A DNA stretch of 64,000 nucleotides from Pyrinomonadaceae bacterium. GTDB lineage: Bacteria; Acidobacteriota; Blastocatellia; Pyrinomonadales; Pyrinomonadaceae. Location of the stretch: the NCBI GenBank assembly GCA_036403235.1, contig DASWRI010000044.1, forward strand, positions 6,193-70,192. Direction: 5' to 3'. The translations under genes and the position numbers were made by a program. Of this stretch, positions 499 to 56,479 are shown piece by piece (position 1 is the first letter of the stretch; every line of letters begins with the position of its first letter). The notes below the pieces were generated by a model. That model was given only the letters and a program-made list of their open reading frames with translations. It was not told where the DNA came from and did not search any database.

Positions 499-583
499 TA
501 GAGGGGCGAGAGACGAGGGACAAGTGACTGGCGAAAGGAATAAAGATTCTTACACTCGTCACTTGTCCCTCGTCTCTAAATTT

Positions 584-1552
584 ATGAAAGCAATCGTTGT
601 CAGAGAATTCGGCGCGCCGGAAGTGATGAAGCTTGAAGAAGTCAAAACTCCCGAAGTCGGCGCTGCGCAAATTTTGGTGCGCGTCAAGGCGGCCGGGATA
701 AATCCGGTCGATACGTATATTCGCGGCGGAAACTATGCGCAAAGACCGCCTCTGCCATACACGCCGGGAAAAGATGCGGCGGGCGTTGTCGAAGCCGTCG
801 GCGCGGGCGTCGAAAACATAAAGGTCGGCGATAGAATTTACACCGCCGATTCAGTGACCGGAACTTACGCCGAATTCGCGCTCTGCGAAGCGAATCAGGT
901 TCACAAGCTGCCCGAAAACGTTTCGTTCGAGCAGGGCGCGGGCGTTTTCGTGCCTTACGCGACGAGCTTTCGCGCTTTGTTTCAAAAGGCGAAAGGAAAA
1001 TCGGGCGAAACAATTCTCGTTCACGGCGCGTCGGGCGGAGTCGGCATCGCTTCGGTTCAATGGGCGAAAAACGCCGGTCTGAAAGTTATCGGGACGGCCG
1101 GCTCGGAAGACGGAAAACAACTCGCTAAAGAGCAGGGCGCGGACTACGTTCTCGACCATTCGGACGAAAATTATCTCGCCGAAATCAAAGAAATCACGGG
1201 CGGAAAAGGCGTCGATATAATTTTGGAAATGCTCGCGAACGTAAATTTGCAAAAGGATTTCGAAATTCTGGCGATGTTCGGGCGCGTGACAATCATCGGC
1301 AATCGCGGAAGTCTCGAATTCAACCCGCGCGCCGTGATGGGCAGAGACGCCGTCGTTTACGGCATGGCGCTGTTTAACGCGCCGGAAGCGGAAATGCGCG
1401 AAATTCAAAACGCGATTTACGAAGGTTTGAGCAAAGGCTTTTTAAATCCGGTCGTCGGCAAAACCTTCCCGCTCAGAGAGGCCGCGGCCGCGCATCACGC
1501 CGTCATCGAAGAAAAAGCGTTCGGCAAAACCATTTTAGTAAGTGATAAGTGA
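584..1552 (+). CDS. NADPH:quinone oxidoreductase / zeta-crystallin-type medium-chain dehydrogenase
   Basis: MKAIVVREFG N-terminus and GASGGVGIASVQ nucleotide-binding motif. Start moved from 524 to in-frame ATG 584, the usual N-terminus for this family. Confidence 0.85.
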   Translation: MKAIVVREFGAPEVMKLEEVKTPEVGAAQILVRVKAAGINPVDTYIRGGNYAQRPPLPYTPGKDAAGVVEAVGAGVENIKVGDRIYTADSVTGTYAEFALCEANQVHKLPENVSFEQGAGVFVPYATSFRALFQKAKGKSGETILVHGASGGVGIASVQWAKNAGLKVIGTAGSEDGKQLAKEQGADYVLDHSDENYLAEIKEITGGKGVDIILEMLANVNLQKDFEILAMFGRVTIIGNRGSLEFNPRAVMGRDAVVYGMALFNAPEAEMREIQNAIYEGLSKGFLNPVVGKTFPLREAAAAHHAVIEEKAFGKTILVSDK

Positions 1553-1585
1553 AAAGTGATAAGTTTCCGATTTATCACTTACCAC
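1538..1585. repeat. heptamer-word inverted repeat, GTGAAAA/GTGATAA family
   Basis: gtaagtg ataagtg aaaagtg ataagt ... ttatcacttaccac. Stem aagtgataa (1554-1562) pairs with ttatcactt (1572-1580). It overlaps the qor stop codon. Confidence 0.8.
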
Positions 1586-2334: not shown

Positions 2335-2410
2335 CGGTGGAAAGTGAAAAGTGGTAAGCGAAAAGTTAAAAATAAATATCCGCTTACCACTTACCGTTTA
2401 CCACTTACCG
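2335..2410. repeat. heptamer-word inverted repeat, GTGAAAA/GGTAAGT family
   Basis: cggtggaaagtgaaaagtggtaagcg, then a 20-nt AT loop, then cgcttaccacttaccgtttaccacttaccg. Confidence 0.8.
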
Positions 2411-4932: not shown

Positions 4933-5040
4933 AAAAAATAGCCCGCGGACGAACGCCGATTTAGCCGATTTTCGCAGATTTGTTTTAAAGATTATCCTTG
5001 AAAATCCGCCGAATCCGTGTTCATCCGCGGGCTATTTTTT
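4933..5040. terminator. long-stem bidirectional hairpin between convergent genes
   Basis: aaaaaatagcccgcggacgaac (4933-4954) pairs with gttcatccgcgggctatttttt (5019-5040): 22 bp with one mismatch and a 64-nt loop, flanked by A and T tracts. Confidence 0.6.
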
Positions 5041-8099: not shown

Positions 8100-10076
8100 A
8101 TGAAAAAGATATTTTTATTAGCAATTTTCGCGCTCGTTTTCAGCGTGAATGCTTTCGCGCACGAAACTTTCAAGCTCGTCAGCAGCGAAAATAAAACTCT
8201 GAAATTGGAGGATTTGATAAAAATCGAGGCGCAGCGAACGCTCGGCAAAATAGATAAAACAAATCTGACTTTTACGGAAAAAGAAATTCGTCTGGTCGTT
8301 TTGACCGGCCCGGAAGACGATATGCTTTCTTACCGCATTCAGGGCGTCAGAAACCCGAATTTAGTCGTCCCGACGGGCGCAACGCTGAAGATTTTATTCG
8401 TTAATATGGACGAAGACATGCGCCACGATATTCGTTTCGGCCACGTCGAAGGCGATTTTCCGGTCGCGCCGGAAATCAAGGAGACGGCCGGAAGCGAGAG
8501 ATTAACCGCTAAATCCGAAGACGGAGTTTTGCAGGCGGAAGAAATCGTCATTCAGTCAATCGAAGACGGAGCTTATAAATATTTCTGTTCCGTCAGAGGA
8601 CACGCCAAAGGCGGAATGTGGGGAAATATTCTGGTAAACGTCAAACCCGGCGCTGATTTGAAAAAAGCCGAGAAAACCGTTCACGTTCATACCGCAGATG
8701 AAGATATGGATATGAACGAAAAAAAGACGGACGAAAAAAAATCAAACGACAATATGAAGGACATGAAAATGGACGATAAAAAGCCCAGTGATATGTCCGA
8801 CATGAAAATGGATGATAAAAAGTCCGACGATATGCCCGGTATGAATATGTCGAGCAGCAAAATGGTAATGTCCTCGGTTACCGACATCAATTCTCCGATG
8901 ACGCGCGAGAGTTCCGGCACTTCCTGGGTGCCGGACTCGACGCCGATGTATGCGACGACGAAGATGTTCAAAGACGGCGGAATGTTGATGTTTCACGGCA
9001 ATATGTTTCTGCGCTATACAAATGTCGGGTCGAGCCGCGATTTTAGCGTCGGCGGCAGAGGCGATAATGAAAGATTCGACGCGCCGTCGATGTTTATGTT
9101 GATGTATTCAAAGCCTTTAAGCGGGAAATCGCAAATCGGTTTGCGCGCGATGCTGAGTCTCGACCCGATTATCGAGCGCGGCTTCGGTTATCCGCTGCTT
9201 TATCAATCGGGCGAAAGTTTTCGCGGCGAGCCGATTCACGACCGCCAGCACCCGCACGATTTTGTTAGCGAGCTTTCGGCGACATATTCTTATAAAATTA
9301 ACGACAAGCAATCATTTTTCTTTTACGCCGGTTATCCGGGCGAACCCGCGCTCGGCCCGCCGACCTTTATGCACCGGTTTTCGGCCATGAACAACCCGGA
9401 CGCGCCGCTTTCGCATCACTGGCAGGATTCGACGCACATCACTTTCGGCGTTTTGACGGCGGGCTACAATTTCGGAAAATTCAAGCTTGAAGCGAGCGCG
9501 TTCAAAGGCCGCGAGCCGAACGAAAATCGCTGGGATTTCGACGCGCCGAAGCTCGATTCTTTCAGCGGCCGGCTTTCTTTTAATCCGACAAAAGAATGGG
9601 CCTTTCAAATTTCTTACGGTTATCTGAAAAATCCCGAACCGGGCGAGCCGGACTTGAAAATTTTAAGACGCACGACCGCTTCGGCAATTTACAATAAAAA
9701 ATTCAGCGACACAAAAAACTGGGCCAGTAGTTTTGTCTGGGGACAAAATTACGGAAACGGCGAGCGCACCAATGCTTTTCTGTTCGAGTCGGATTTTACA
9801 TTCGATAAAAATTCGATTTTCGGGCGCGTCGAAAGAGTGCAGAAATCCGGTCACGAACTCGTTTTGGACGAAATCGACCACGATAAAATCTTTTGGGTCG
9901 GCGGCTATTCAATCGGTTATCTGCGCGAGCTTTATAAAAACAAAAATTGGAACGTCGGGCTCGGCGCACAGGCTACTCTTTATCAAAATTCAATCGGATT
10001 AGTTTCGTATTACGGCGGCACGAATCATCAGGGCTGGCAGGTATTTCTGCGCATTCACTCTTCGATGATGAATTAA
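8100..10076 (+). CDS. cupredoxin / Met-rich linker / outer-membrane beta-barrel fusion protein
   Basis: Signal peptide. Type-1 copper-like ligand spacing C-x4-H-x4-M in YKYFCSVRGHAKGGMWGNILV. Two 39-bp tandem repeats encode DMKMDDKK(P/S)xDM (8760-8837). C-terminal roughly 390 aa has beta-barrel-like alternation. Confidence 0.7.
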   Translation: MKKIFLLAIFALVFSVNAFAHETFKLVSSENKTLKLEDLIKIEAQRTLGKIDKTNLTFTEKEIRLVVLTGPEDDMLSYRIQGVRNPNLVVPTGATLKILFVNMDEDMRHDIRFGHVEGDFPVAPEIKETAGSERLTAKSEDGVLQAEEIVIQSIEDGAYKYFCSVRGHAKGGMWGNILVNVKPGADLKKAEKTVHVHTADEDMDMNEKKTDEKKSNDNMKDMKMDDKKPSDMSDMKMDDKKSDDMPGMNMSSSKMVMSSVTDINSPMTRESSGTSWVPDSTPMYATTKMFKDGGMLMFHGNMFLRYTNVGSSRDFSVGGRGDNERFDAPSMFMLMYSKPLSGKSQIGLRAMLSLDPIIERGFGYPLLYQSGESFRGEPIHDRQHPHDFVSELSATYSYKINDKQSFFFYAGYPGEPALGPPTFMHRFSAMNNPDAPLSHHWQDSTHITFGVLTAGYNFGKFKLEASAFKGREPNENRWDFDAPKLDSFSGRLSFNPTKEWAFQISYGYLKNPEPGEPDLKILRRTTASAIYNKKFSDTKNWASSFVWGQNYGNGERTNAFLFESDFTFDKNSIFGRVERVQKSGHELVLDEIDHDKIFWVGGYSIGYLRELYKNKNWNVGLGAQATLYQNSIGLVSYYGGTNHQGWQVFLRIHSSMMN

Positions 10077-10121: not shown

Positions 10122-10157
10122 AAAAAAAAGAGCGTCTTGATTGATGCTCTTTTTTTT
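10122..10157. terminator. bidirectional rho-independent terminator
   Basis: A8 tract, stem aagagcgtc/gatgctctt (one G-U pair), 6-nt loop, T8 tract. Lies between convergent genes. Confidence 0.65.
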
Positions 10158-12464: not shown

Positions 12465-12675
12465 AATGAAATCAGAATCCGAACGTTTGATAAGAAAAAG
12501 AATATTATCGAAGAGGTGGACGGCAATCTTAGCTAAACTGCCAAATTTAAGCTAACATGTTCCGGTAATTTATGTCAACGTGTTTTAACAATATTTGTTA
12601 TTTTTAACGTAAAATTTTTGTAAATTCTCAACTTTGATTTTTGCAGCGTAATTTTTTAGTCTAATTCTTTGTCAA

Positions 12676-12744
12676 AGTCTGGAGTCTCAAGTCTGAGGTC
12701 TTGAGTCAAAGATTTTCCGACTTGAGACTTCAGACTTGAGACTC
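12676..12744. repeat. heptamer-word inverted repeat, AGTCTNA family
   Basis: agtctggagtctcaagtctgaggtcttgagtc, then an 11-nt loop, then gacttgagacttcagacttgagactc. Ends 10 nt before ATG 12755. Confidence 0.8.
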
Positions 12745-15174: not shown

Positions 15175-15320
15175 GCGAAAAGAAAAGACAGAAAAAAGAC
15201 GGCGAGGGCAAAAACAAGAATAATCAGCGAATGCGCGCCGCCAATGATAAAGACACGGGCGCGAAAAACGGCATCGATACCCGCGAGGACGATAAATCGG
15301 CGGGAAAATCGAAAAATTAG
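15171..15320 (+). CDS. 49-aa highly charged microprotein candidate, translationally coupled
   Basis: ATG 15171 overlaps the upstream TGA (ATGA). Translation MSEKKRQKKDGEGKNKNNQRMRAANDKDTGAKNGIDTREDDKSAGKSKN. Below the ORF-track cutoff. A hairpin follows immediately. Confidence 0.3.
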   Translation: MSEKKRQKKDGEGKNKNNQRMRAANDKDTGAKNGIDTREDDKSAGKSKN

Positions 15321-15380
15321 CTGAAAAGTAAAAAATGAAAACTGAAAGGTGAAAACAACTTTCAGTTTTCATTTTTCAGC
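15320..15380. repeat. heptamer-word inverted repeat, TGAAAAN family
   Basis: gctgaaaa gtaaaaa atgaaaactgaaag, loop, then ctttcagttttcatttttcagc. The 5-prime arm carries exactly one extra heptamer relative to the 3-prime arm. Confidence 0.85.
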
Positions 15381-16248: not shown

Positions 16249-16304
16249 GTCTAAAGTCGCAAGTCTAAGGTCGGAAAACAATTTTGACTTTGGACTTGCG
16301 ACTC
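16247..16304. repeat. heptamer-word inverted repeat, AGTCNNA family
   Basis: gagtctaaagtcgcaagtctaaggtc, loop, then gactttggacttgcgactc. Overlaps the mutM stop codon. Confidence 0.75.
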
Positions 16305-16455: not shown

Positions 16456-16599
16456 TTGACAGTTTCAGGCGGAAACCGCATTATAAAATTTACTTTTCGT
16501 GGTGAGTTATAGCGACTTGCGACCACGTAAAATAAACTGCTAAACAGCGAACCGAAGAAAGTTTTAAAGAGTCTCGCTGTTTTGGCGAGATTTTTTTTT
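16456..16599 (+). promoter_or_regulatory. promoter plus leader with terminator/antiterminator alternative (unclassified riboswitch or attenuator candidate)
   Basis: TTGACA 16456-16461 with CATTAT/TATAAA downstream. Hairpin cgtggt...accacg. Terminator tctcgc (16572-16577) / gcgaga (16585-16590) plus T9. Competing 9-bp pairing aaacagcga (16542-16550) with tcgctgttt (16574-16582). Confidence 0.4.
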
Positions 16600-16600
16600 A

Positions 16601-16651
16601 GCCGTCAGCCGTCAGCGTTCAACTATCAATTTAAAACTGACTACTGACCAC
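16601..16651. repeat. heptamer-word inverted repeat, GCCGTCA/CTGACNA family (imperfect)
   Basis: gccgtca gccgtca gcg, an AT loop, then aactgactactgaccac, directly before ATG 16658. Confidence 0.55.
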
Positions 16652-16657
16652 AGATTT

Positions 16658-18550
16658 ATGAAAAACTTCCGAGAAATATTAGACTCCGACGGTATTTTTG
16701 TTTTTGACGGCGCGGTCGGGACGCGTTTTTACGACAAGGGAATTTATATCAATCGCTCCTACGACGAGCTGAACCTGACCGCGCCCGACTTGGTGCGCGA
16801 AGTTCACGCCGAATATGTCAAAGCGGGCGCGGACATCATCGAAACCAATACTTTCGGCGCGACGCGTCACAAATTGCAGCAATACAGTCTCGAAAACAAA
16901 TTAAAGGAAATCAACATCGCGGGCGTGCGCATCGCGCGCGAAGCGGCTGGCGAAGACGTTTTTGTCGCCGGCGCGATTGGGCCGCTCGAACTCAGAATCG
17001 AGCCTTACGGCCCGACCTCGTTTGAAGAAGCGAAAGAGATGTTCAAGGAACAGGCCGCGGCGCTGCTCGAAGGCGAAATCGATTTGTTTGTGCTGGAAAC
17101 GTTTTCTGATTTGTCGGAAATCGAGCAGGCGATAAAAGCCGTCCGCGAATTGTCGGATTTGCCGATTTTCGCGCAGATGACGATTACGACCGAAGGCAAG
17201 ACGGTTTTCGGCGTGACGCCCGAAACTTTTACCAAAAAGCTCGATGAGCTCGGCGTCGATGTCATCGGCCTGAACTGCGGCGTCGGGCCGACGCATATTT
17301 TGACGACGCTCGAAAAAATGCGCGGCGCGACTACCAAATCGCTTTCCGCGCAGCCGAACGCCGGACTCCCGCGCGATGTGCAGGGACGGCAGTTTTATAT
17401 GTCTTCGCCCGAATACATGTCGAAATTTGCCAAGCGTTTTATCAAGGCGGGCGCAAAATTCGTCGGCGGCTGCTGCGGCACGACGCCGAAGCACACGAAA
17501 TTGATGGCCGACGCGGTTCGCGCCATTTCTCCGCGCGCGGCGAAGGCAACGGCAAAGCCCGTCATTTCGGCCAAAGTCAATGATTTAACTCCGGCCGACG
17601 TTCAGGTCGTTTCGCCCGAAGAGCGCTCGAAATGGTCACGGAAAATCGCGCGCGGCGAGTTTGTCACATCGGTCGAAGTTCTGCCGCCGAAAGGCTGCGA
17701 CGCGGCGAAAACTCTGGATTCAATCAAGCTTCTGGTCAATGCCGGGGTCGATGCGGTAAATATTCCCGACGGGCCGCGCGCGCAGACCAGAATGAGCGCG
17801 CAGGCGACCGCCGTCCTCGTCGAACAGCGGGTCGGCATCGAAGCCGTTCTGCATTACTGCTGCCGCGATAGAAATCTTCTGGGAATGATGTCCGACCTGC
17901 TCGGCGCGGCGGCGCTCGGGCTTCACAATCTTTTAATTATCACCGGCGACCCGCCGAAAATGGGGCCGTTTCCCGACGCGACCGCCGTTTTCGACATCGA
18001 TTCCATCGGCTTGACGAATATGGTCAACAAGTTAAATCACGGGCTCGATTTGGGGAACAATCCGATTGGCTGCCCGACCGCGTTTTCCATCGGCGTCGGC
18101 GTCAATCCGGGCGCGATAAATCTCGATGAGGAAATCCGCCGTTTTGAATGGAAAGTCGAAGCGGGCGCGGAATACGCCATCACGCAGCCGGTTTACGATA
18201 CCGAGCAATTAAGGAGCTTTTTGAAAAAAATCGAGCACGTACGCATCCCGATTGTCGCCGGAATTTTCCCGCTTGTTTCGATTCGCAACGCCGAATTTAT
18301 GCACAACGAAGTTCCGGGCGTCGTCATTACGCCGGAAATTCTGGACAGGATGAGAAAAGCGTCGGACGTTTCAAAAGAAGCTGCGCGCGAGGAAGGCATA
18401 AAAATCGCCCGCGAATCGCTGGTCGAGGTACGCGATTTGATTCAGGGCGTGCAGGTTTCCGCGCCGTTCGGCAACGTCAAATACGCGCTTCAGGTTTTTG
18501 ACGTGCTCGAAGAATTTAAGACGAGAAAAGAAGCGGCGGTCATTTCATAA
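16658..18550 (+). CDS. bifunctional homocysteine S-methyltransferase / 5,10-methylenetetrahydrofolate reductase
   Basis: N-terminal Hcy-binding domain with GGCCGTTP zinc motif. C-terminal MetF-like TIM barrel. 630 aa. Confidence 0.88.
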   Translation: MKNFREILDSDGIFVFDGAVGTRFYDKGIYINRSYDELNLTAPDLVREVHAEYVKAGADIIETNTFGATRHKLQQYSLENKLKEINIAGVRIAREAAGEDVFVAGAIGPLELRIEPYGPTSFEEAKEMFKEQAAALLEGEIDLFVLETFSDLSEIEQAIKAVRELSDLPIFAQMTITTEGKTVFGVTPETFTKKLDELGVDVIGLNCGVGPTHILTTLEKMRGATTKSLSAQPNAGLPRDVQGRQFYMSSPEYMSKFAKRFIKAGAKFVGGCCGTTPKHTKLMADAVRAISPRAAKATAKPVISAKVNDLTPADVQVVSPEERSKWSRKIARGEFVTSVEVLPPKGCDAAKTLDSIKLLVNAGVDAVNIPDGPRAQTRMSAQATAVLVEQRVGIEAVLHYCCRDRNLLGMMSDLLGAAALGLHNLLIITGDPPKMGPFPDATAVFDIDSIGLTNMVNKLNHGLDLGNNPIGCPTAFSIGVGVNPGAINLDEEIRRFEWKVEAGAEYAITQPVYDTEQLRSFLKKIEHVRIPIVAGIFPLVSIRNAEFMHNEVPGVVITPEILDRMRKASDVSKEAAREEGIKIARESLVEVRDLIQGVQVSAPFGNVKYALQVFDVLEEFKTRKEAAVIS

Positions 18551-18570: not shown

Positions 18571-18641
18571 AGCCGCGAATTACACAAATTACGCAAATAA
18601 AAAATCAATTTCTATTTGCGTAATTTGTGTAATTCGCGGCT
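18571..18641. terminator. perfect 29-bp-stem hairpin between convergent genes
   Basis: agccgcgaattacacaaattacgcaaata (18571-18599) is the exact reverse complement of 18613-18641. The loop is 13 nt. Confidence 0.75.
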
Positions 18642-19324: not shown

Positions 19325-19930
19325 ATGAAAGGATTTTTGAATTTCGGCGGATTTGCATTTTTAGCTTTTATGGCTTTAACGGCGGCGTCGACGGTTTTTG
19401 CGCAGAACGCAAAGGAAACATACACGGGAACGGTTTTAAGTTACGGCACGGGCTTAAATACGAGAAGCACGACGCGCACTTTTACGCTCAACATCACCGG
19501 AACGACCTCCGACACCGAGGCGAAAGGTTTTCTCGCTACTTTGCGCGATAAAGGTCAGAGCACTCTGCTCGATGAAATCAACGACGAAAAACTCGGAAAT
19601 TTTTCGGTCGGCGGTCGTATCGGGCCGACGATAAACGTCGTGCGCGAAAGCGATGTTGACGGGCAGAGAAGAATTTTTGTCGTCTTTGAGCGCTGGATGC
19701 AGTTTGCCGAGCTGCGCGGCGGTTATCGCTCGACCGACTACCCGTTCGGAGTTATCGAGCTGTTTATGGACGAGCGCACCGGAAAGGGAACCGGAACTTA
19801 TATCGAAGCCGCCAAAATCCGCTGGAATTACGACGATAAAAGCAAGCAATATCAGGTGGAAATCGAAAACTTCGCGACGTTTCCGGCAAAGCTTCTCGGC
19901 GTCACGCAAAGCGGCGGAAGAGGCAGATAG
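19325..19930 (+). CDS. secreted hypothetical protein
   Basis: Signal peptide MKGFLNFGGFAFLAFMALTAASTVFAQ. 201 aa. No motif recognised. Confidence 0.55.
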   Translation: MKGFLNFGGFAFLAFMALTAASTVFAQNAKETYTGTVLSYGTGLNTRSTTRTFTLNITGTTSDTEAKGFLATLRDKGQSTLLDEINDEKLGNFSVGGRIGPTINVVRESDVDGQRRIFVVFERWMQFAELRGGYRSTDYPFGVIELFMDERTGKGTGTYIEAAKIRWNYDDKSKQYQVEIENFATFPAKLLGVTQSGGRGR

Positions 19931-19985
19931 GGAAGTGAAAAGTGAAAAGTTTAAGAATCTTTTCTAAACTTTTCACTTTTCACTC
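19931..19985. repeat. heptamer-word inverted repeat, GTGAAAA family
   Basis: gaagtgaaaagtgaaaagttt, loop aagaatcttttct, then aaacttttcacttttcactc. The loop is nearly identical to the copy at 48846-48886. Confidence 0.85.
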
Positions 19986-20247
19986 AGTAATTTATTACTT
20001 TAACGACGCCGGTCTTGAATTTCTCCGGGTTCGGCGAGGGCGTTTTGGTCAACGTGAATTTGTGATTATAGCGGTCGGCCGCCTCTGCCGCCGGTATGCT
20101 CTGCCATTCGTATTTGATGACGGCGCCGTCGCCGAATTCGTAGATTCTTTCGATTTTATCGGCGGTGTAAACGGTCGGCGTCTCCTTCGCGATTTTGTCG
20201 CGCTCGTCGTAAATAATAATGTTTGCGTATTCTTCGGCGTTTTTCAT
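19984..20247 (-). CDS. hypothetical small protein
   Basis: 87 aa, MKNAEEYANIIIYDERDK... Flanked on both sides by GTGAAAA-word repeats. Confidence 0.45.
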   Translation of the reverse strand: MKNAEEYANIIIYDERDKIAKETPTVYTADKIERIYEFGDGAVIKYEWQSIPAAEAADRYNHKFTLTKTPSPNPEKFKTGVVKVINY

Positions 20248-20315: not shown

Positions 20316-20357
20316 CTCTTTCACTTTCCACTTTTCACTTTTCGCTTTTCACTTGAG
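20316..20357. repeat. solo arm of CACTTTT heptamer words
   Basis: ctctttcactttccacttttcacttttcgcttttcacttgag. No adjacent complementary arm. Confidence 0.7.
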
Positions 20358-21835: not shown

Positions 21836-21916
21836 GAATTACGAATTTCAAATTACGAATTACGAATCCAGAACTTATTTCTTTAATTCATAATTCGTAA
21901 TTTAAAATTCGTAATT
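21836..21916. repeat. heptamer-word inverted repeat, GAATTAC family
   Basis: gaattacgaatttcaaattacgaattacgaat, loop, then aattcataattcgtaatttaaaattcgtaatt. Fills the spacer up to ATG 21922. Confidence 0.85.
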
Positions 21917-22205: not shown

Positions 22206-22313
22206 GTCATTCGTCATTTGTCCGTGGTCAGTTGCTGGTTGAATTTAATTCGAGAGCGTAATTAAAGCTCAAGCCCGCAACTGACCACTGACCACTGACC
22301 ACTGACCACTGAC
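22206..22313. repeat. heptamer-word inverted repeat, CTGACCA family
   Basis: 5-prime arm GTCATTC GTCATTT GTCCGTG GTCAGTT GC. 3-prime arm GCAA (CTGACCA)x4 CTGAC. Ends 4 nt before ATG 22318. Confidence 0.9.
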
Positions 22314-22884: not shown

Positions 22885-22958
22885 GCTCCCGTAGCTCAGC
22901 TGGATAGAGCGTTCGCCTCCTAAGTGAAAGGCCGCAGATTCGAATTCTGCCGGGAGCA
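22885..22958 (+). tRNA. tRNA-Arg (anticodon CCU)
   Basis: Acceptor gctcccg/cgggagc. D arm gctc-agctggata-gagc. Anticodon stem ttcgc/gtgaa with loop CUCCUAA. T arm gcaga-ttcgaat-tctgc. 74 nt with no encoded CCA. Confidence 0.9.
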
Positions 22959-26046: not shown

Positions 26047-26327
26047 TTCTTTATAAAATACGCGATTTATATTGAAATATCCACAAATTTTTTTTGGCCG
26101 GCCGGATTGCTTTTTATTTATTTGAAAATATTTTTCGAAATTTTTGGAAAGCAAAAGCGAATAAAACTTTCTAATAAGTAACGGAAGATAACGGTGGTCA
26201 AGCGCAATGGCAAGCAATTTGGCTTAACTTGGGGATTCCGTGTTCTGTTCACAATCTTCGTATAAAATGTCTTGAGCCGTATTTGACCGAATGCGGCTTT
26301 TTTCTTTTTAAAATTTCCAAAATTCGT

Positions 26328-26537
26328 TCGTGCAAATTGTTAAGGCGCTCGTGCAAAAGAATAAATCACGTCTGCAAAACGATAAACCGTCCGTGCAAAC
26401 GAATAACTCGCTCGTGCAAACGAATAAACCGTTCGTGCAAAAGAATAAATGCTTCGTGCAAAACTGTAAACGGCTCGTGCAAAACTGTAACTCGCTGGTG
26501 CAAAGAAATCTTTCGTTCGTGCAAAAATTTGTACGGG
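26328..26537 (+). repeat. array of 10 direct repeats with exact 21-bp period (core TCGTGCAAA)
   Basis: Core starts at 26328, 26349, 26370, 26391, 26412, 26433, 26454, 26475, 26496 and 26517. Consensus TCGTGCAAAnGAATAAAnCGn. Confidence 0.92.
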
Positions 26538-34999: not shown

Positions 35000-35110
35000 C
35001 CACAGAGGCACAGAGATTTTTTAGCCACGAATTACACGAATTACACAGATAAAAGAAATAATAATTCGTGTTATTTGTGGCTAACTTCTTTTCTGTGCTT
35101 CTTGTGCCTC
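35000..35110. repeat. nested inverted repeats (outer CACAGAG words, inner GAATTACAC words)
   Basis: Outer ccacagaggcacagag / ctgtgcttcttgtgcctc. Inner agccacgaattacacgaattacaca (35023-35047) / aattcgtgttatttgtggct (35063-35082). Confidence 0.8.
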
Positions 35111-39655: not shown

Positions 39656-40804
39656 ATGAAACTTGACGTTCTCATAATCAGAATCGGATTCGTCGCATTG
39701 CTGATGGTGCTCGGCTTTATCCTCAATCCGTTTGAAAAAACGGCTCGGCTCGGTTTTGACTCAATCGGTAACGATATTCGACCGTTTTTGTCGGCCTTGT
39801 TCGGCGGCATTATCGCGCTTTTTATTATCGCCTTTGAAATGCGTGTGCGGCGCGTTTCGCTGAAAACTCTTATCGGCGCGGCCATCGGCTCGATTTTGGG
39901 AATTTTGGGCGCGTTTTTAATCGGCGTTCTGATTTCGATTCAAAAAGAAGCGGCGGTTTCAGCCGAAATGCAGACGTTCTTGACGATTTCACTGGCGTTT
40001 TTTATGGGCTACATCGGTCTCATGGTCGGCGCGGCGAAAGGCGAATATCTTGATTTATCGGTTCTGGGCGGGATTTTTTCCGACAAAAACGTCAAGCGCG
40101 ACTGCAAAGTCCTCGACACGTCCGTCATCATCGACGGGCGCATCGCTGACGTTGCCGAAACCGGATTTTTGGGCGGAACTTTGATAATTCCGCAGTTTAT
40201 TTTGACCGAGCTGCAGCAGGTCGCCGATTCGCCCGACTCGTCAAAACGCCAGCGCGGGCGACGCGGGCTCGACATGCTCCAGCGCCTGCGCAACAATTCG
40301 AAAATCGACATCCAGATTATCGAAACCGATTTTCCGCAGGTGCGCGAAGTCGATTTGAAACTAATCGAGCTCGGCAAACAGCTCGACGCCGTTATCGTCA
40401 CCAACGATTTTAATTTGAACAAAGTTTCGCAGCTTCGCGGCGTGCAGGTTTTGAATATCAACGAGCTCGCCAACGCGCTCAAACCGGTCGTTCTGCCGGG
40501 CGAAGCGATGCGCGTTTTTGTCTTGAAAGAAGGCAAGGAATACAATCAGGGCGTCGCATATCTGGACGACGGAACAATGGTCGTCATCGACAACGCGCGG
40601 CGGCTTATCGGCAAAACCGCCGACGTCGCGGTGACGAGCGTGTTGCAGACGACCGCCGGAAAAATGATTTTCGGGCGTCTTTGGGAAGAAAAAGACGAAA
40701 ATTACGAAAACTCGCCGAACATTCACGATTCGCGTGCGACCGGTTTCAGAAAAACCGCGCGCGATATGCAGAGCGTCAGTTTTATTCCGAATAACGAAGA
40801 ATAA
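39656..40804 (+). CDS. membrane-anchored PIN/TRAM-domain protein (YacL-like)
   Basis: Four N-terminal TM helices, a PIN block VLDTSVIIDGRI...TNDFNL, and a C-terminal TRAM-like beta domain. Confidence 0.8.
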   Translation: MKLDVLIIRIGFVALLMVLGFILNPFEKTARLGFDSIGNDIRPFLSALFGGIIALFIIAFEMRVRRVSLKTLIGAAIGSILGILGAFLIGVLISIQKEAAVSAEMQTFLTISLAFFMGYIGLMVGAAKGEYLDLSVLGGIFSDKNVKRDCKVLDTSVIIDGRIADVAETGFLGGTLIIPQFILTELQQVADSPDSSKRQRGRRGLDMLQRLRNNSKIDIQIIETDFPQVREVDLKLIELGKQLDAVIVTNDFNLNKVSQLRGVQVLNINELANALKPVVLPGEAMRVFVLKEGKEYNQGVAYLDDGTMVVIDNARRLIGKTADVAVTSVLQTTAGKMIFGRLWEEKDENYENSPNIHDSRATGFRKTARDMQSVSFIPNNEE

Positions 40805-40878
40805 GTGAAAAGTGAAAAGTGACAGGTGATAGGTTTTGTTTTCACTTATCACTTTTTAATTATCACTTATCACTTTTT
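40803..40878. repeat. heptamer-word inverted repeat, GTGAAAA/GTGATAA family
   Basis: aagtgaaaagtgaaaagtgacaggtgatagg, loop, then ttcacttatcactttttaattatcacttatcacttttt. Occupies the entire yacL-ispD spacer. Confidence 0.9.
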
Positions 40879-41592
40879 ATGAACGTTGCGATTATAGTTG
40901 CCGGCGGAAGCGGAACCAGATTCGGCGGCGAAATCCCGAAGCAGTTTGTCGAAATTTGCGGAAAGCCGCTCGTCGCGCACACGCTCGATGCGTTCGAAAA
41001 TTGTTCTTCGATTGACGAAATCGTCCTCGTTTTGCCCGCCGTTGAGCTCGAAAATTTCAGAAAAAAAAATAACTCGATTAAATTAAAAACGATTGTCGCG
41101 GGCGGAAAAACCCGCGCCGAATCGGTTTTTAACGGTCTGCAGGCTGTCTCCGGCAAAGCGGAAATCGTCGCCGTTCACGACGGCGCGCGCCCTCTGGTTT
41201 CCGCCGAAGAAATTTCCCGTACAATCGAAATGGCGAAAGAGACGGGCGCGGCGTGCCTGGTCGCGCCCGTCAGCGATACGATAAAAAAAGTTTCCGGCGG
41301 AAAAATAATCGAAACCGTCGACCGCGAAAACTTACGCCGTGCTCTGACGCCGCAGGCATTTCGGCTGGAGATTCTGCAAAAAGCGTTCGATGCGGCCGAT
41401 TTGAGCGAAGCGGCGACCGACGAATGTTTTCTGGTGGAAAAAGCGGGCTTTGAAATCGCGACGGTCGAAGGCAGCGCGAAAAACATCAAGATTACGACCC
41501 GCGAAGATTTGATTTGGGCAGAAGTTTTTTTAAGAGAGAAGTCGGATAATGGATGCCAGATGTTAGAATCCGGCTTCTTTTCTAAAATCTGA
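40879..41592 (+). CDS. ispD: 2-C-methyl-D-erythritol 4-phosphate cytidylyltransferase
   Basis: MNVAIIVAGGSGTRFG N-terminus. Start moved to ATG 40879. The ORF-track extension only translates the repeat (FHLSLFNYHLSLF). Confidence 0.9.
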   Translation: MNVAIIVAGGSGTRFGGEIPKQFVEICGKPLVAHTLDAFENCSSIDEIVLVLPAVELENFRKKNNSIKLKTIVAGGKTRAESVFNGLQAVSGKAEIVAVHDGARPLVSAEEISRTIEMAKETGAACLVAPVSDTIKKVSGGKIIETVDRENLRRALTPQAFRLEILQKAFDAADLSEAATDECFLVEKAGFEIATVEGSAKNIKITTREDLIWAEVFLREKSDNGCQMLESGFFSKI

Positions 41593-41604
41593 AATCTAAT
41601 ATTT

Positions 41605-42905: not shown

Positions 42906-42972
42906 TTCGAGAATTACAAATAAAAAAGACCGCCGATTGTCACCGGCGGTCTTTTTTTATTTGTAATTCGAA
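42906..42972. terminator. extended bidirectional terminator hairpin
   Basis: ttcgagaattacaaataaaaaagaccgccg, loop attgtcac, then cggcggtctttttttatttgtaattcgaa. GC core stem with A/T tracts and outer AATTACAAAT arms. Confidence 0.8.
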
Positions 42973-48845: not shown

Positions 48846-48855
<10 letters not shown>

Positions 48856-48886
48856 AAAGTTTAAGAATTTTCTTTCACTTTTCACT
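48846..48886. repeat. heptamer-word inverted repeat, GTGAAAA family
   Basis: cgaaaagtgaaaagtttaagaattttctttcacttttcac. Contains the ABC ATPase stop codon. Confidence 0.85.
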
Positions 48887-49355: not shown

Positions 49356-49619
49356 TTAATTTTTTTCCTTTTTCCGAAAATAAAACGAGAGCCACAAACC
49401 GATTAAATTGTTGATGGTCAAAATCCCGTTCGTCACCGTAAAAACCCAATTTCCAACCAGATAGCTGTAAACGGTAAATCCGATTGAAGCCGCGAGTTGG
49501 CCGATAAAAAGCCATTTTGAAACGCCTTCGCCGGTGCGCTCTTTCCATTGTTTGTAAACTTGTTTGATGAGTGTAATGAGCAAAATCCCCGAGCTCGCCC
49601 AACCGATTATTTCCGTCAT
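49356..49619 (-). CDS. three-helix small membrane protein (PQ-loop/SemiSWEET-like candidate)
   Basis: 87 aa from ATG 49619 (MTEIIGWASSGILLITLIKQVYKQWKE...). Three predicted TM helices. Confidence 0.35.
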   Translation of the reverse strand: MTEIIGWASSGILLITLIKQVYKQWKERTGEGVSKWLFIGQLAASIGFTVYSYLVGNWVFTVTNGILTINNLIGLWLSFYFRKKEKN

Positions 49620-49713
49620 AAGAATAATTTTAGCGCAAAGAGTGCGGGAAAAGGCAAAAGAAAAAAGGCAAAAGCCGGGAATTACGCTTTTGCCTTTTTT
49701 CTTTTTACTTAAT

Positions 49714-50943
49714 TTATCCGGCAACCGTCTGCGTTTCCGAATTGAACAAATTTTCCATGCGCTTGACCGCCGCTTGCAGATTTTCCAGAGACGTAGCGTA
49801 GGAAAATCGGATAAATCCGTCAGCGCCGAAGCCCGCGCCGTCTGTCACGACGACCTGCGCTTCCGTCAGAAGATATTCGGCGACGGCGGCGGAAGATTCG
49901 AATTTATCTCCGAGCATTCCGCGCACGTCGACAAAAGCGTAAAACGCGCCTTCGGGCATTTCGCATTTGAAACCCTCGATTTTCTGCAAAGCCGGAATCA
50001 GCCAGTCGCGCCGTCGGCGATATTCGGCGAGCATCGAACCGACCGCCGCCATCGATTTTTCGCGCTCCTCGGCGGCGCGCGCGCAGGCGTATTGGACGAA
50101 GCTCGTCGGATGCGAAGCCGAATGACTTTGCAGTTTCGTCATCGCGCGCGTCCATTCCGCGCGCGCAATCGTGTAACCGATGCGCCAGCCGGTCATCGCG
50201 TAGGTTTTCGAAAAACTGCCCGCGACGCAGACGTATTTGCGCAATTCGTCGGGCAGCGCGGCCGACGTGAAAACCTCGCCGGGCGGATAGACGAAAAACA
50301 AATAACATTCGTCGGTCAAAACATAAACGTCGCGCTCGGCACAGACTTCGACGATTTTTCGCATCTCGTCGGCCGGAATGACGCGCCCGGTCGGATTGTT
50401 CGGCGAATTGATGATTAAAAGCTTGGTTTTGTCGGTGATGGCCTCGCAAACCTGTTCGGCCGTCAAAACAAAATCGGTTTCCTCGGTTTCGATAAAACGG
50501 CTGTTCGCGCGGTTGAAATTGACGATTTCGGGAAAAGTCACCCAATATGGCTTCGGAATCAAAACGTCGTCGCCAATGTTTAAAATCGTGCAGGCGGCGT
50601 TGAAAAGCGCCTGTTTTCCGCCGCACGCCGCCGCCACTTCCGACGGCGAAAAGCGCGCGCCGAACTGAGCGGCGTAAAAATGCGCGATGGCCTCGGTAAA
50701 AGACTTGAGGCCGACGGTCGGCGTATATTTTGTCAGGCCTTTTTGCAAACCTTCCCACGCGTATTCCTTGATAAATTCGGGCGTCTGAAAATCCGGCTCG
50801 CCTAAAGTCAAATCAATCACGTCAAAGCCCTGCTCACGCAGCTCGCGCGCGATTTGTCCCGCTTTAAGCGTCGACGACATATGCATCTTGGCGACGTTTT
50901 CGGAAACGGGAAAAATTTGGCTGGCAGCGTCTCTGGTTTTCAT
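49714..50943 (-). CDS. class I/II pyridoxal-phosphate aminotransferase (aspartate aminotransferase-like)
   Basis: LTLGEPDF, INSPNNPTG and GSFSKTYAMTGWRIGY (PLP lysine) motifs. Confidence 0.88.
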   Translation of the reverse strand: MKTRDAASQIFPVSENVAKMHMSSTLKAGQIARELREQGFDVIDLTLGEPDFQTPEFIKEYAWEGLQKGLTKYTPTVGLKSFTEAIAHFYAAQFGARFSPSEVAAACGGKQALFNAACTILNIGDDVLIPKPYWVTFPEIVNFNRANSRFIETEETDFVLTAEQVCEAITDKTKLLIINSPNNPTGRVIPADEMRKIVEVCAERDVYVLTDECYLFFVYPPGEVFTSAALPDELRKYVCVAGSFSKTYAMTGWRIGYTIARAEWTRAMTKLQSHSASHPTSFVQYACARAAEEREKSMAAVGSMLAEYRRRRDWLIPALQKIEGFKCEMPEGAFYAFVDVRGMLGDKFESSAAVAEYLLTEAQVVVTDGAGFGADGFIRFSYATSLENLQAAVKRMENLFNSETQTVAG

Positions 50944-51413: not shown

Positions 51414-51644
51414 TTTTCAGACCTCATCGTAAAGTTTTCAACGGTCAGAAAATCATTTTCAACGTGCAGAAAATACTTTTCGACACTTCAAAAATCATTT
51501 TCAACACTCCGAAAAGTCTTTATGAGACGTCGAAAAATTTATTTGACATACAGAAAACCTTTTGTGACGCTCAGAAAATCTTTTGCAGCACGTCGAAAAT
51601 CTTTTGCGACATACGAAAAACTTTGTGCGAAGCCTCGCAAAATC
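51414..51644 (-). repeat. array of 11 direct repeats with exact 21-bp period (minus-strand unit aGATTTTCnnnnGTnnnnAAA)
   Basis: Plus-strand units start at 51414, 51435, 51456, 51477, 51498, 51519, 51540, 51561, 51582, 51603 and 51624. Lies between the coaD stop and the VOC start. Confidence 0.92.
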
Positions 51645-51692: not shown

Positions 51693-52187
51693 TTAAGACG
51701 ATTTCAATTTATCGCGCATTTTTAGCTCGACCGATTCGGGCACGAGACCTTCGACGCGGCCGCCGAGCGTGAAAATTTGTTTCAAAAGATTCGATGAAAC
51801 ATACGAATATTCTTCGGCCGCCATCAGAAAAACCGTCTCGATGCTCGGTTCAAGGCGACGGTTCATCAAAGCCATCCGCAGCTCGTATTCGTAATCGGAA
51901 ACGGCGCGAATGCCGCGCACAATCGCCGTCGCGCCGCGTTTTTTTGCAAAATCGGCGGTCAGACCGGAAAAGCCGTCGACAATCAGACGGCATTCTTGGC
52001 TTTCGATTTGAGGCAGAATTTCTTCAATCATACGGCAGCGTTCTTCAACGGAAAACATCGGATTTTTGTCGGGATTATTTAAAACGGCGATGATGATTTC
52101 GTCAAAAAGCGGCAGGCTTCGCTTGATAATGTCGAGATGACCGTTGGTTAAAGGGTCGAACGAACCGGGAAAAATTGCGCGGCGCAT
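51693..52187 (-). CDS. coaD: phosphopantetheine adenylyltransferase
   Basis: MRRAIFPGSFDPLTNGH from ATG 52187. The ORF-track extension translates the repeat (FTFHFPLFTLHLL). Confidence 0.92.
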   Translation of the reverse strand: MRRAIFPGSFDPLTNGHLDIIKRSLPLFDEIIIAVLNNPDKNPMFSVEERCRMIEEILPQIESQECRLIVDGFSGLTADFAKKRGATAIVRGIRAVSDYEYELRMALMNRRLEPSIETVFLMAAEEYSYVSSNLLKQIFTLGGRVEGLVPESVELKMRDKLKSS

Positions 52188-52193
52188 ATTTAG

Positions 52194-52252
52194 TAAGTGT
52201 AAAGTGAAAAGTGGAAAGTGGAAAGTGAAGAAAAGGTTCTTCAACTTTTCAC
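52194..52252. repeat. heptamer-word repeat, NAAAGTG family (six tandem words, short return arm)
   Basis: GTAAGTG TAAAGTG AAAAGTG GAAAGTG GAAAGTG AAGAAAA ... cttttcac. Fills the spacer between the TPR lipoprotein gene and coaD. Confidence 0.85.
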
Positions 52253-52255
52253 TAA

Positions 52256-53044
52256 TCAGAATCTCGTTTCCAAAAGCTTCTTCGCCTTTTCGACGCATTC
52301 TTTGTGTTCGAACGTATATTCGGGACCGGGCTTCATCTTTAAGATATATTCGAGCTGTTTTTTCGCATCGGCGTCGCGGCCGACCGCCAGATAAGCTTCT
52401 GCCAGATGCAAATAAATATAGGTGTTTTCCTTTTCGATTTCGAGAGCTTTTTCCAGATATTCGACCGCTTTTTCCGGCTTTCCGCCGGCGAGCATTCCGG
52501 CTTTCATCTCGACCTGCGCCAGCGCGTCGTAGGCGCTGGCGGCTTGATAATTAGGCTGGATTTCGATGACTTTGTTCATCTCGGAGCGAATCTCGTCGAT
52601 GGCTTTAATGCCGACCGTGACCGGGCTTCGCCGAGCCTGTTCGCCTAAATTAGCGCCGTACCAGAAGTGTCCGTCGGGTTTCTCGGGCTCCATTTTGGCG
52701 GCGATTTTTCCGGCCTGCACGCCGTCTTCAAAAGCCTTTTCGATTTCCTTTTCGTCCGGGCTATGTTTGCCGAGAAAAAAATTATATTTGGCGAATTTCC
52801 ATTCCGATTCGTAATTTCGAACGTCGGGATTACGCGTTCGGGCAAGTGTCTGAACGGCTTCGCGCAGTTTCGATAAATCGTCGCGCTGCTGGAAAAGCTC
52901 GTCGGCTTTGGCGATGGCGTCGGAGAAAAAAGTCGGTGTTATTTTCTGCTTAAAATCCTCAGTTACGCCTTTTGACGCGCACGCCGAAGCGAAAATCACG
53001 AAACATGCAATTGTAATAAAACGGTAAAATCTTATCCTTTTCAT
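52256..53044 (-). CDS. TPR-repeat lipoprotein
   Basis: Lipobox-like FASACAS after the signal peptide. TPR-like helices (AEAYLAVGRDADAKKQLEYILK). Confidence 0.7.
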   Translation of the reverse strand: MKRIRFYRFITIACFVIFASACASKGVTEDFKQKITPTFFSDAIAKADELFQQRDDLSKLREAVQTLARTRNPDVRNYESEWKFAKYNFFLGKHSPDEKEIEKAFEDGVQAGKIAAKMEPEKPDGHFWYGANLGEQARRSPVTVGIKAIDEIRSEMNKVIEIQPNYQAASAYDALAQVEMKAGMLAGGKPEKAVEYLEKALEIEKENTYIYLHLAEAYLAVGRDADAKKQLEYILKMKPGPEYTFEHKECVEKAKKLLETRF

Positions 53045-55941: not shown

Positions 55942-56172
55942 ATGCAAAAGAAATTAACGATTACGATTGACGAGCGCGTTTACGAAGGTCTGCAAACGGT
56001 TGTCGGGCGCGGGAAAATCAGCCAGTTTATTGAGGTTTTGCTGCGTCCGCACGTTTTGAAACAGGATTTGGACGCAGCTTACAAGGAAATGTCTGAAGAC
56101 GAGGCGCGTGAAACCGAAGCGTTGGAATGGTCGGAAGCGACAATTGGAGACGTAAATAATGAAACGTGGTGA
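55942..56172 (+). CDS. ribbon-helix-helix-type antitoxin candidate
   Basis: 76 aa. KLTITIDERVYEGL beta-strand/helix start and an acidic C-terminal tail. Overlaps the toxin start by 14 nt. Confidence 0.6.
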   Translation: MQKKLTITIDERVYEGLQTVVGRGKISQFIEVLLRPHVLKQDLDAAYKEMSEDEARETEALEWSEATIGDVNNETW

Positions 56173-56479
56173 AGTCTGGTGGGTGAATTTCGAGCCGGCT
56201 ATCGGCGGCGAAATCAAAAAACAGCGTCCCGCCGTTATCCTGAGCAACGACGTTTCCAACAAATATCTCAACCGCGTTCAAGTCGTGCCGCTTTCGAGTC
56301 AAATTGACAAACTTTATCCGAGCGAGGCTTACGTCCAATTCGGCGGAAAACAGGCAAAAGCCTTAGCCGACCAACTGACAACCGTCAGCAAACAGCGTCT
56401 GCTAAATAAAGCCGGACATTTATCAAAAGCAGATGTTGAGCAAGTTGAAAGAGTAGTTAAGATACAGCTTGATTTATAA
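56159..56479 (+). CDS. mazF: MazF/PemK-family type II toxin endoribonuclease
   Basis: MKRGEVWWVNFEPAIGGEIKKQRPAVILSND...VVPLSS. 106 aa. Confidence 0.9.
   Translation: MKRGEVWWVNFEPAIGGEIKKQRPAVILSNDVSNKYLNRVQVVPLSSQIDKLYPSEAYVQFGGKQAKALADQLTTVSKQRLLNKAGHLSKADVEQVERVVKIQLDL

Follow-up and report, generated by a model that had tools for sequence, protein, structure and literature searches.

Extragenic hairpins with arms of tandem seven-nucleotide words in Pyrinomonadaceae

Known repeats and the DNA studied

Arrays of direct seven-nucleotide (7-nt) repeats are found in heterocystous cyanobacteria, where the STRR families have the consensus words CCCCAGT, TTGGTCA and CAACAGT. Direct heptamer arrays are also known as the TAACTGA repeats (PMC4679880) and from Nostoc (bioRxiv 10.1101/2022.06.06.494920), and extragenic palindromes are known as the REP and REPIN elements (PMC3116915). 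A preference for heptanucleotides among long simple repeats is a general prokaryotic feature according to Mrazek et al. (2007), in the account given by PMC4679880. In the Beggiatoaceae genome, 1 inverted set was present among 170 heptamer repeat sets (PMC4679880). The roles proposed for REPs are protection of the mRNA 3' end, termination and, when they lie at most 15 nt from a stop codon, stalling of ribosomes (PMC12306157, PMC3116915); in the account that PMC12306157 gives of Liang et al., E. coli REPs at most 15 nt from the stop do stall ribosomes. Here we describe a hairpin that fills the spacer between yacL and ispD at positions 40803-40878 of a 64,000-nt stretch of DNA (the window), which is part of a 73.7-kb metagenome contig (DASWRI010000044.1) of an uncultured Pyrinomonadaceae bacterium (Acidobacteriota). 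It belongs to a class of extragenic hairpins that is specific to the Pyrinomonadaceae lineage and the arms of which are arrays of tandem 7-nt, sometimes 9-nt, words that are complementary to each other. In the searched literature, which mostly did not cover subscription journals, no account was found of inverted heptamer arrays forming hairpins, nor of any such repeats in Acidobacteria, and an older description is possible.

Gene positions were taken from the JGI and ENA calls and Pfam assignments in public records of the same contig, plus one Pfam scan. Tandem arrays were identified with Tandem Repeats Finder (TRF), and folding was expressed as z-scores versus dinucleotide shuffles (200 per locus). 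Relatives were collected with a RadA scan, in which the nearest genomes were metagenome-assembled genomes of Pyrinomonadaceae (69-88% identity) and which yielded 23 related loci and 57 loci of other phyla, the latter being used as the control set. An ispD scan of metagenomes gave 80 further related contigs. The family DNA amounted to 819 kb and the control DNA from other phyla to 935 kb; L-numbers (L003, L109 and so on) denote related contigs or loci of the family set.

Hairpins built from inverted heptamer arrays

A preliminary description of the window had listed nine loci with words of the GTGAAAA type, one of them (20316-20357) as a lone arm. TRF confirmed period-7 arrays at all nine, and the eight others fold as RNA hairpins (-14.7 to -27.8 kcal/mol, z -4.8 to -7.5; 0/200 shuffles fold as well). 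The nine loci are listed below with strand, gene context and z-score.

40803-40878 (+): focal hairpin, fills the yacL-ispD spacer; -26.4 kcal/mol, z -6.07; 5' arm of AAGTGAA twice, AAGTGAC, AGGTGAT and AGG, then a short loop and a 3' arm of TCACTTA, TCACTTT, TTAATTA, TCACTTA, TCACTTT and TT; shares bases with the yacL stop (40802-40804) and extends to the ispD ATG (40879)
1538-1585 (+): GTGATAA/GTGAAAA hairpin; z -4.95; stop TGA (1550-1552) of the zinc alcohol dehydrogenase gene (Zn-ADH, qor-like) within the 5' arm
2335-2410 (+): GTGGAAA/GTGAAAA/GTGGTAA hairpin; z -4.98; mid-spacer, from the hemerythrin to the CHRD/FG-GAP gene; the sole hairpin of this set not adjoining a stop codon
3980-4038 (+): GGTAAGT/GGTAGGT hairpin plus a further TTTTCAC unit at the 3' side; z -6.65; 19 nt past the CHRD/FG-GAP stop, with the next start 24 nt on
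15320-15380 (+): TGAAAAG/TGAAAAC hairpin; z -7.36; directly 3' of the stop of a called open reading frame (ORF) of 49 amino acids (aa), with the fpg start 38 nt on
19931-19985 (unstranded): (AAGTGAA)2.6/(ACTTTTC)2.4 hairpin; z -7.46; fills a convergent spacer between a stop at 19930 (+) and the stop of an 87-aa ORF at 19987 (-)
20316-20357 (unstranded): lone pyrimidine-type array, TTTCACT x5; unstructured, z -0.32; divergent spacer between the 87-aa ORF and dinB
48846-48886 (unstranded): GTGAAAA hairpin; z -4.80; fills the 35-nt convergent spacer between an ABC ATPase gene and a hypothetical gene, with the ABC ATPase TGA (48853-48855) within the 5' arm
52194-52252 (-): GTGAAAA/GTGGAAA array with a short complementary arm; z -5.65; lies between the stop of the TPR gene (52256) and the true coaD start, so placed that in the sense direction a long pyrimidine array precedes coaD

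The JGI and ENA calls and Pfam bore out the earlier statements that the yacL-ispD, TPR-coaD and ABC-ATPase convergent spacers are each filled by a hairpin and that two elements (1538-1585 and 48846-48886) include stop codons. The convergent setting of 19931-19985 follows from the 87-aa ORF at 19987-20247 (-), which neither matches a Pfam family nor has a homologue among the relatives fetched. It has a hairpin at its stop and the lone array about 70 nt upstream of its start, and is plausibly a genuine gene.

The single word was weakly enriched in the window (29 matches vs 19.3 expected). The tandem double word GTGAAAAGTGAAAA, with at most 3 mismatches, was found 56 times in the window as compared to 15.9 ± 4.0 in dinucleotide shuffles, of which 0/100 reached 56, and all 14 matches with at most 1 mismatch were inside the nine loci. 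The excess is thus one of tandem and inverted arrangement rather than of base composition, and the words are not simply chance AT-rich heptamers. Unit order, unit number and loops vary among the nine loci, and no target-site duplications or common flanks were visible around them. As had been noticed before, the loops of 19931-19985 and 48846-48886 are alike (82% identity over 57 nt, E = 1e-7).

The earlier idea of one GTGAAAA family had to be replaced by that of a class with many words, as 31 complementary hairpins across the family DNA use 21 distinct ones. Long hairpins numbered 135 in the family DNA and 76 in the control DNA, and their arms were 7-periodic in 48/135 and 0/76, respectively. 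With TRF, 147 period-7 arrays were detected in the family DNA compared to 17 in the control DNA, and 30 compared to 8 for period 9. Period 7 was dominant (147 of 234 family arrays), and the best period of repetitive family arms was 7 in 44 cases, 9 in 12 and any other in at most 2. For 104 of the 147 period-7 family arrays (71%) an inverted complementary partner was nearby. When neighbouring arrays were paired without reference to base pairing, 31 of the 37 pairs were inverted complements, in comparison to 1.6 ± 1.3 with permuted words. The suggestion that the arrays are STRR-like but inverted held up: in a 200-kb plasmid sample of Nostoc PCC 7120, an inverted partner was present, at a distance, for 1/9 period-7 arrays. 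Words common to unrelated loci within one genome were GTGAAAA (the nine loci of the window), AGTGGTG (two loci of L025) and GTGGGCA (two loci of L166).

The anatomy of the hairpins follows fixed rules. A purine-rich, stop-rich arm comes first and abuts or contains the upstream stop codon, and it is followed by a pyrimidine-rich arm that lacks ATG and GTG and often reaches up to the next start. The purine-rich arm was first in 29/31 hairpins (p = 5e-7); since the reverse complement of such a hairpin keeps the polarity, the rule holds for transcripts of either strand. Words of the 5' arm were nearly C-free (A 95, C 11, G 61, T 50). A stop triplet was present in 22/31 of the 5'-arm words and 6/31 of the 3'-arm words, and ATG or GTG in 22/31 of the former and 0/31 of the latter, start-proximal words. 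As the unit length of 7 is not divisible by 3, a run of three stop-containing units places a stop in all frames.

Stems of the periodic hairpins started at a median of 2 nt past the upstream stop, 74% of them within 10 nt, as compared to medians of 14.5 nt for other family hairpins and 20 nt for control hairpins. Together with the excess of the double word, this supports the earlier view of a real, non-compositional family at the 3' ends of genes. In the yacL-ispD spacer the stem extended (medians, n=25) from 0 nt past the stop to 3 nt before the ATG, and the lengths of this spacer were bimodal: 17 were of at most 27 nt and without a hairpin, and 29 were of 44-134 nt, 25 of them with a strong stem. 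When the type of spacer was considered in the window alone, hairpins were found in 14/38 spacers with a gene 3' end and 1/9 divergent ones, which was not significant (Fisher p = 0.24); the distance to the stop codon, not the spacer type, is the informative measure. The start-proximal arm was the longer one in 15 hairpins and the other arm in 6. A Shine-Dalgarno 4-nt core was present at -20 to -3 of 12/58 window genes only and leaders were mostly A/T-rich, so the lineage seems to rely mainly on Shine-Dalgarno-independent initiation.

Comparison of orthologous spacers revealed variation in word number. Between L109 and L112, which are 95% identical, the 3' arm of the yacL-ispD hairpin differs by a single 7-nt unit. 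In the ispD-ispF spacer, compared with the full hairpin of L112, L109 is short of five 5'-arm units (35 nt) and carries three extra 3'-arm units; the protein is unaffected, because the stop codon lies in the first unit. Contig pairs with 96-99.9% identity had identical hairpins. At 88-91% flank identity the word was in some cases wholly different (L115 GTGAAAA vs L118 AAGGATA; L098 GGTAAGT vs L110 ATGATGA). Strain variation was also sought in the ENA, second JGI and Logan copies of the window's contig, all three of which were 100% identical, and the best match in a metagenome scan for very close ispD relatives was just 70% identical. Fine-scale population dynamics are therefore visible in few contig pairs only.

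The arms thus gain and lose whole units, as in replication slippage, and do so largely independently, as their unit numbers were uncorrelated (rho 0.19, p = 0.31). The same figures rule out copying between the arms or strict selection for equal arms. Across many species, orthologous spacers retain the hairpin while the word changes. The yacL-ispD words form a related series (GTGAAAA, GTGAATC, GGTGAAT, GGTAAAT, GGTAAGT) and the ispD-ispF spacer has its own AATCTNN series; the arms stay complementary as the words drift between species (L096 GGTAAAT/ATTTACC, L098 GGTAAGT/ACTTACC). That each orthologous spacer has its own word series suggests descent in place, during which the two arms changed in concert. 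The words common to unrelated loci and the loop common to two window copies indicate some copying between loci or a genome-wide bias.

Further word elements and gene calls in the window

The class is wider than the GTGAAAA words. In the window 15 long hairpins were counted, compared to 0-1 in shuffles, and all of them are within the 6.5 kb of intergenic DNA (about 10% of the window). At least 10 further word elements are present, with words such as AAGTCTG, GAATTAC, AAAAGGC and the 9-nt CACGAATTA, and the fold z-scores of all tested word hairpins ranged from -4.8 to -12. These elements are as follows.

509-577 (+): GAGACGA/GGGACAA hairpin; z -9.70; 10 nt past the thioredoxin stop, inside a false extension of the ADH ORF
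12675-12744 (+): AAGTCTG/GAGTCTC hairpin; -44.8 kcal/mol, z -7.75; in a divergent spacer and a 5'-leader case, since it ends 11 nt before the ATG at 12755
16255-16303 (+): AAGTCTA-type hairpin (AAGTCTG word); z -9.91; 7 nt past the fpg stop; the only word hairpin also flagged by a simple terminator scan
18571-18641 (unstranded): hairpin of 9-nt words (AATTACACA), 30/33 arm positions paired; -47.4 kcal/mol, z -12.18; convergent spacer
21836-21916 (+): GAATTAC hairpin, variant units mirrored between the arms; z -9.10; fills all of the spacer between the chlorite-dismutase stop and the acylphosphatase start
22280-22313 (+): lone perfect array, ACTGACC x4.9; ends 4 nt before the phosphoribosyltransferase ATG (22318)
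35021-35084 (+): hairpin of 9-nt words (CACGAATTA), AGCCACGAAT family; z -8.99; 34 nt past the disulfide-isomerase stop
41581-41599 (+): lone short array, TCTAAAA/TCTGAAA, across the ispD stop; the remnant of the AATCTNN arrays and hairpins in the ispD-ispF spacer of relatives
42911-42969 (unstranded): composite element in a convergent spacer; outer arms GAATTACAAATAAAAAA (GAATTAC word) around a canonical bidirectional GC-stem terminator (42922-42957)
49649-49705 (-): AAAAGGC hairpin; z -7.02; 9 nt past the aminotransferase stop

The two 9-nt-word hairpins (18571-18641 and 35021-35084) are members of a sub-family with the ends AGCC[A/G]CGAAT and ATTCG[T/C]GGCT (AGCCACGAAT...ATTCGTGGCT) and internal sub-repeats of 8-9 nt. 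Elsewhere the sub-family was found in L003 (10156-10231), L012 (3236-3310), L013 (1068-1150 and 1558-1645), L018 (930-984) and L024 (43-110), so that its ends are conserved at non-orthologous sites in at least 6 genomes. It is a dispersed REP-like element, the most REP-like component of the material and separate from the heptamer hairpins with their variable words.

The hairpins also interfere with gene calling. As had been proposed, they create spurious N-terminal extensions: the longest ORFs or public calls run through hairpin arms at 51693-52298 (-), 49356-49724 (-), 524-1552 (+) and 40819-41592 (+). The pyrimidine arms, being stop-free, cause these systematic start-site errors. The coaD gene was called at 201 aa (51693-52298, -) and its Pfam domain starts from residue 42, and in the ADH ORF the ADH_N domain starts from residue 47. 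For the gene at 49356-49724 (-), the 122-aa JGI call runs through the hairpin 49649-49705, whereas the 87-aa ENA call does not. Such hairpins mislead gene callers, and Pyrinomonadaceae genomes need start prediction that is aware of repeats.

Some other repeats and features were observed. ACTGACC/CTGACCA arrays are present directly upstream of two starts, at 16633-16650 (metH-like gene) and 22280-22313 (phosphoribosyltransferase), and the word recurs in the ispD-ispF spacers of the relatives L119 and L124. It is similar both to the Beggiatoaceae word TAACTGA and to the complement of TTGGTCA, one of the cyanobacterial STRR words. Two arrays of about 10 tandem 21-nt units each occupy long spacers: 26324-26533 (consensus TCGYTCGTGCAAAAGAATAAA) lies in a divergent spacer upstream of nnr, with an 83-aa JGI ORF call passing through it, and 51435-51630 (consensus TTTTCAACNNTCAGAAAATCW) is in the interval bounded by the glyoxalase start and the coaD stop. 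As 21 nt is 3 x 7 and about two helical turns, these units could be phased sites for protein binding. The convergent spacer that separates thiD from a hypothetical gene is filled by a 108-nt imperfect, non-periodic hairpin with 41-nt arms (4933-5040). The 39-nt tandem repeat at 8760-8849 (2.3 copies, 82% matches) is a coding repeat, since it is inside a gene for a 658-aa hypothetical protein (8100-10076). A near-threshold match to the SAM-II (SAM_alpha) riboswitch (16489-16562, +; 35.5 bits vs a gathering score of 36, E = 2.5e-4) has a fitting context, about 100 nt upstream of a homocysteine S-methyltransferase/MTHFR gene (16658-18550). The convergent spacer after the phosphoribosyltransferase gene contains a tRNA-Arg (CCT) gene (22885-22958, +), and a small ORF with a PemK-toxin gene (55942-56479, +) is likely a toxin-antitoxin module.

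Possible functions and comparison with known systems

We tentatively lean, short of calling it probable, to a reading of the elements as slippage-built mRNA stem-loops that act as hairpins at transcript ends or between cistrons. They would be transcribed within mRNAs and fold into long AU-rich stem-loops, and as 3' structures of the REP or terminator type they may form transcript ends or be barriers to 3' exonucleases. In convergent spacers a word hairpin could be the only hairpin available to end both transcripts. All seven convergent spacers of the window with room hold a strong hairpin, and in three (18571, 19931, 48846) the word hairpin is the sole one. Past the disulfide-isomerase gene, word hairpins are found in the window, L003 and L010, and terminators with a GC stem and T-tract in eight relatives. 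The A-rich-first polarity is shared with the hairpins of control genomes (78% vs 79%), and the ribosome stalling by E. coli REPs close to stops (PMC12306157) offers a precedent. Inside operons the elements would be leaky terminators at most. There the stem base may bring the upstream stop and the next start side by side, and a ribosome terminating on the stop in the first unit might open the stem base and free the pyrimidine leader, which has no start codons; translation of the downstream gene would then depend on that of the upstream gene. Alternatively, the stem inside operons might be a site of double-strand processing. Long perfect double-stranded stems are substrates of RNase III, and the stems of 25-32 perfect pairs in L092, L096 and L098 would be expected to be such substrates.

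Several observations weigh against such a role. The word hairpins are not canonical terminators, an identity that was rejected on stem, loop and T-tract statistics and terminator scans. Their stem GC is 0.33, with a median arm of 23.5 nt and loop of 17.5 nt (control hairpins 0.40, 15 nt and 6 nt), and at least 5 T within 8 nt past the stem were found in 15% of them in comparison to 39% of control hairpins. A simple terminator scan flagged 0/8 of the GTGAAAA hairpins. The look of a terminator in the preliminary description therefore does not extend to the canonical sequence definition. Among stem mismatches on the sense strand, G:T and A:C were balanced (24 vs 25), which gives no RNA-level signature; the controls (7:7) were equally uninformative. 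Several hairpins lie between the essential co-directional genes yacL, ispD and ispF, and the corresponding spacers of relatives are overlapping or tiny. As there is no room for a promoter, strong termination is implausible in this conserved essential operon. A few hairpins are in 5' leaders or divergent spacers (for example 12675-12744). Many relatives are hairpin-free and the arms are unequal in unit number, both signs of weak constraint. Finally, the family census sampled loci centred on one genomic neighbourhood, so orthologous hairpins were counted more than once; despite this sampling, at least 30 periodic hairpins were outside the yacL-ispD spacer.

The main rival, which we find doubtful yet well worth weighing, is a neutral or selfish mutational by-product with no selected function. 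Heptamer slippage would seed on both arms of small inverted repeats and expand until it reaches coding sequence, and, since the flanking stop and start remain next to each other around a self-complementary insert, the hairpins would be tolerated. This agrees with the whole-unit differences at 95% identity, the independent arm sizes, the replacement of words at 88-91% flank identity, the many hairpin-free relatives with spacers of at most 27 nt, the lack of a G:U excess over A:C and the general prokaryotic preference for heptamers as reported from Mrazek et al. (2007) in PMC4679880. However, mutation that is symmetric between strands would not be expected to give the 29/31 polarity or a start-proximal arm free of ATG and GTG, and it does not explain the complementarity maintained through word change (L096, L098); the persistence of a hairpin in the same spacer over many species and the three convergent spacers where a word hairpin is the sole one also speak against it. 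The remaining readings are less likely. Miniature mobile elements of the REP/REPIN type, mobilised by a RAYT or another Y1 transposase from some other part of the genome, are improbable, even though the hairpins are extragenic, palindromic and near stops, share words between unrelated loci (GTGAAAA, AGTGGTG, GTGGGCA) and in two window copies share a loop, and even though the AGCCACGAAT sub-family has its conserved ends at non-orthologous sites. The heptamer class has no full-length REP-type consensus such as an invariant 16-mer, and the separate word lineage of each orthologous spacer suggests descent in place. No filled and empty sites with defined ends were found among close strain pairs, which differ in 7-nt units inside the arms, and nothing in these differences points to mobility of the REP/BIME type. 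The Pfam lists of window genes contain no Y1_Tnp or RAYT-like domain, in line with the earlier remark that the window has no RAYT-like transposase, and tblastn with an IS200/IS605 TnpA query had 0 matches in the 819 kb of family DNA, which is a weak test for RAYTs.

Ordinary Rho-independent terminators with incidentally repetitive stems are very improbable. The position past stops and the A-rich 5' and T-rich 3' arms are like those of control terminators (A-rich arm first in 78% of family and 79% of control-genome hairpins), in one spacer the position is taken by canonical terminators in relatives, and 16255-16303 passes the terminator scan. On the other side are the differing stems, loops and T-tracts, the separate ordinary terminators of the window at 10122, 39530, 42922 and 46219, and the filling of spacers within a conserved essential operon. 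In Rfam no hairpin had a match at the gathering score, and the sub-threshold matches (eukaryotic miRNA precursors and a CsrC fragment) therefore mark just generic long hairpins. It is also unlikely that the arrays are binding sites for a single-strand-binding OB-fold protein (cold-shock protein or ribosomal protein S1), each fold taking up one 7-nt unit, and that binding to the pyrimidine arm melts the hairpin and switches on downstream translation or switches termination. Such sites would suit the heptamer footprint reported for CspB (in the review given by PMC4679880), the U/C-rich, start-codon-free arm next to the start, the greater length of that arm (15 vs 6) and the low use of Shine-Dalgarno cores, as in lineages with heptamer arrays upstream of starts (PMC4679880; bioRxiv 10.1101/2022.06.06.494920). 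The diversity of words speaks against a sequence-specific binder, however, and 9-nt words occur too. More speculatively, and with little confidence, the elements might be modular regulatory devices: units of the pyrimidine arm would dock OB-fold domains, the protein or a terminating ribosome would unzip the stem and expose the start-codon-free leader, and the unit number set by slippage would tune coupling or termination for each gene. If true, this would give a mechanistic reason for the long-unexplained heptamer excess of prokaryotes.

Heptamers are the commonest long simple repeats of prokaryotes, and here they follow rules that can be tested: the arrays pair in inverted orientation with a fixed polarity, the hairpins begin at the stop codon, their second arm is devoid of start codons, and turnover is by whole units. 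The host lineage is abundant and little studied, in soil and desert. If the hairpins are functional, they would be a new way to end, protect or couple transcripts in a lineage that seldom uses Shine-Dalgarno sequences; if not, they would offer a clean natural system for the way slippage and hairpin formation shape non-coding DNA.

In comparison to known systems, the word hairpins share with bidirectional intrinsic terminators (A-tract, GC stem, T-tract) their strand symmetry, with A-rich sequence before and T-rich sequence after, and their location in convergent spacers and just past stops, in one spacer at the same position as the terminators of relatives. They differ in their long, AT-rich, periodic stems and large loops, in that a separate T-tract is usually absent, and in that they are also present in tight operons. 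With the REP, BIME and REPIN elements (PMC3116915, PMC12306157) they have in common that they are extragenic imperfect palindromes, forming hairpins in mRNA or single-stranded DNA, that they are frequent just past stop codons and inside operons, and that a genome-specific sequence is present at many loci. In contrast to REPs, they have many words without a consensus or 16-mer, arms that are tandem 7-nt arrays changing by whole units, and no RAYT or transposition footprint found in the available sequence (window and family DNA); the individual arms are not palindromic, as the REPs within a REPIN are. They are also far closer to stops, 74% being within 10 nt, whereas for E. coli REPs the share within 15 nt is about 11% (PMC12306157).

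The likeness to STRR sequences is that of intergenic tandem direct 7-nt repeats with several word families per genome. Occasionally the words are nearly identical, as for a rotation of CAACAGT in L006 and ACTGACC/TGACCAC at 22280 of the window. Unlike the STRR families, the arrays are hosted by Pyrinomonadaceae rather than cyanobacteria and have GTGAAAA, GGTAAAT, GGTAAGT and similar main words. They are not solitary direct runs, 71% being paired in inverted orientation as compared to 1/9 in the Nostoc PCC 7120 plasmid sample, and their purine-first polarity is fixed and their abutment to stops tight. The TAACTGA repeats of Beggiatoaceae (MacGregor 2015, PMC4679880) and the TTTTGAA/TTCAAAA repeats of Nostoc 7120 (bioRxiv 10.1101/2022.06.06.494920) are similar in that heptamer arrays end a few nt before starts, in genomes that rarely use Shine-Dalgarno sequences, with a suspected post-transcriptional role. 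The lone arrays 22280-22313 and 41581-41599 and the start-proximal arms look like repeats of this type. Those repeats are nearly always direct and of one word, whereas inverted pairs, with many different words, are the norm in the Pyrinomonadaceae.

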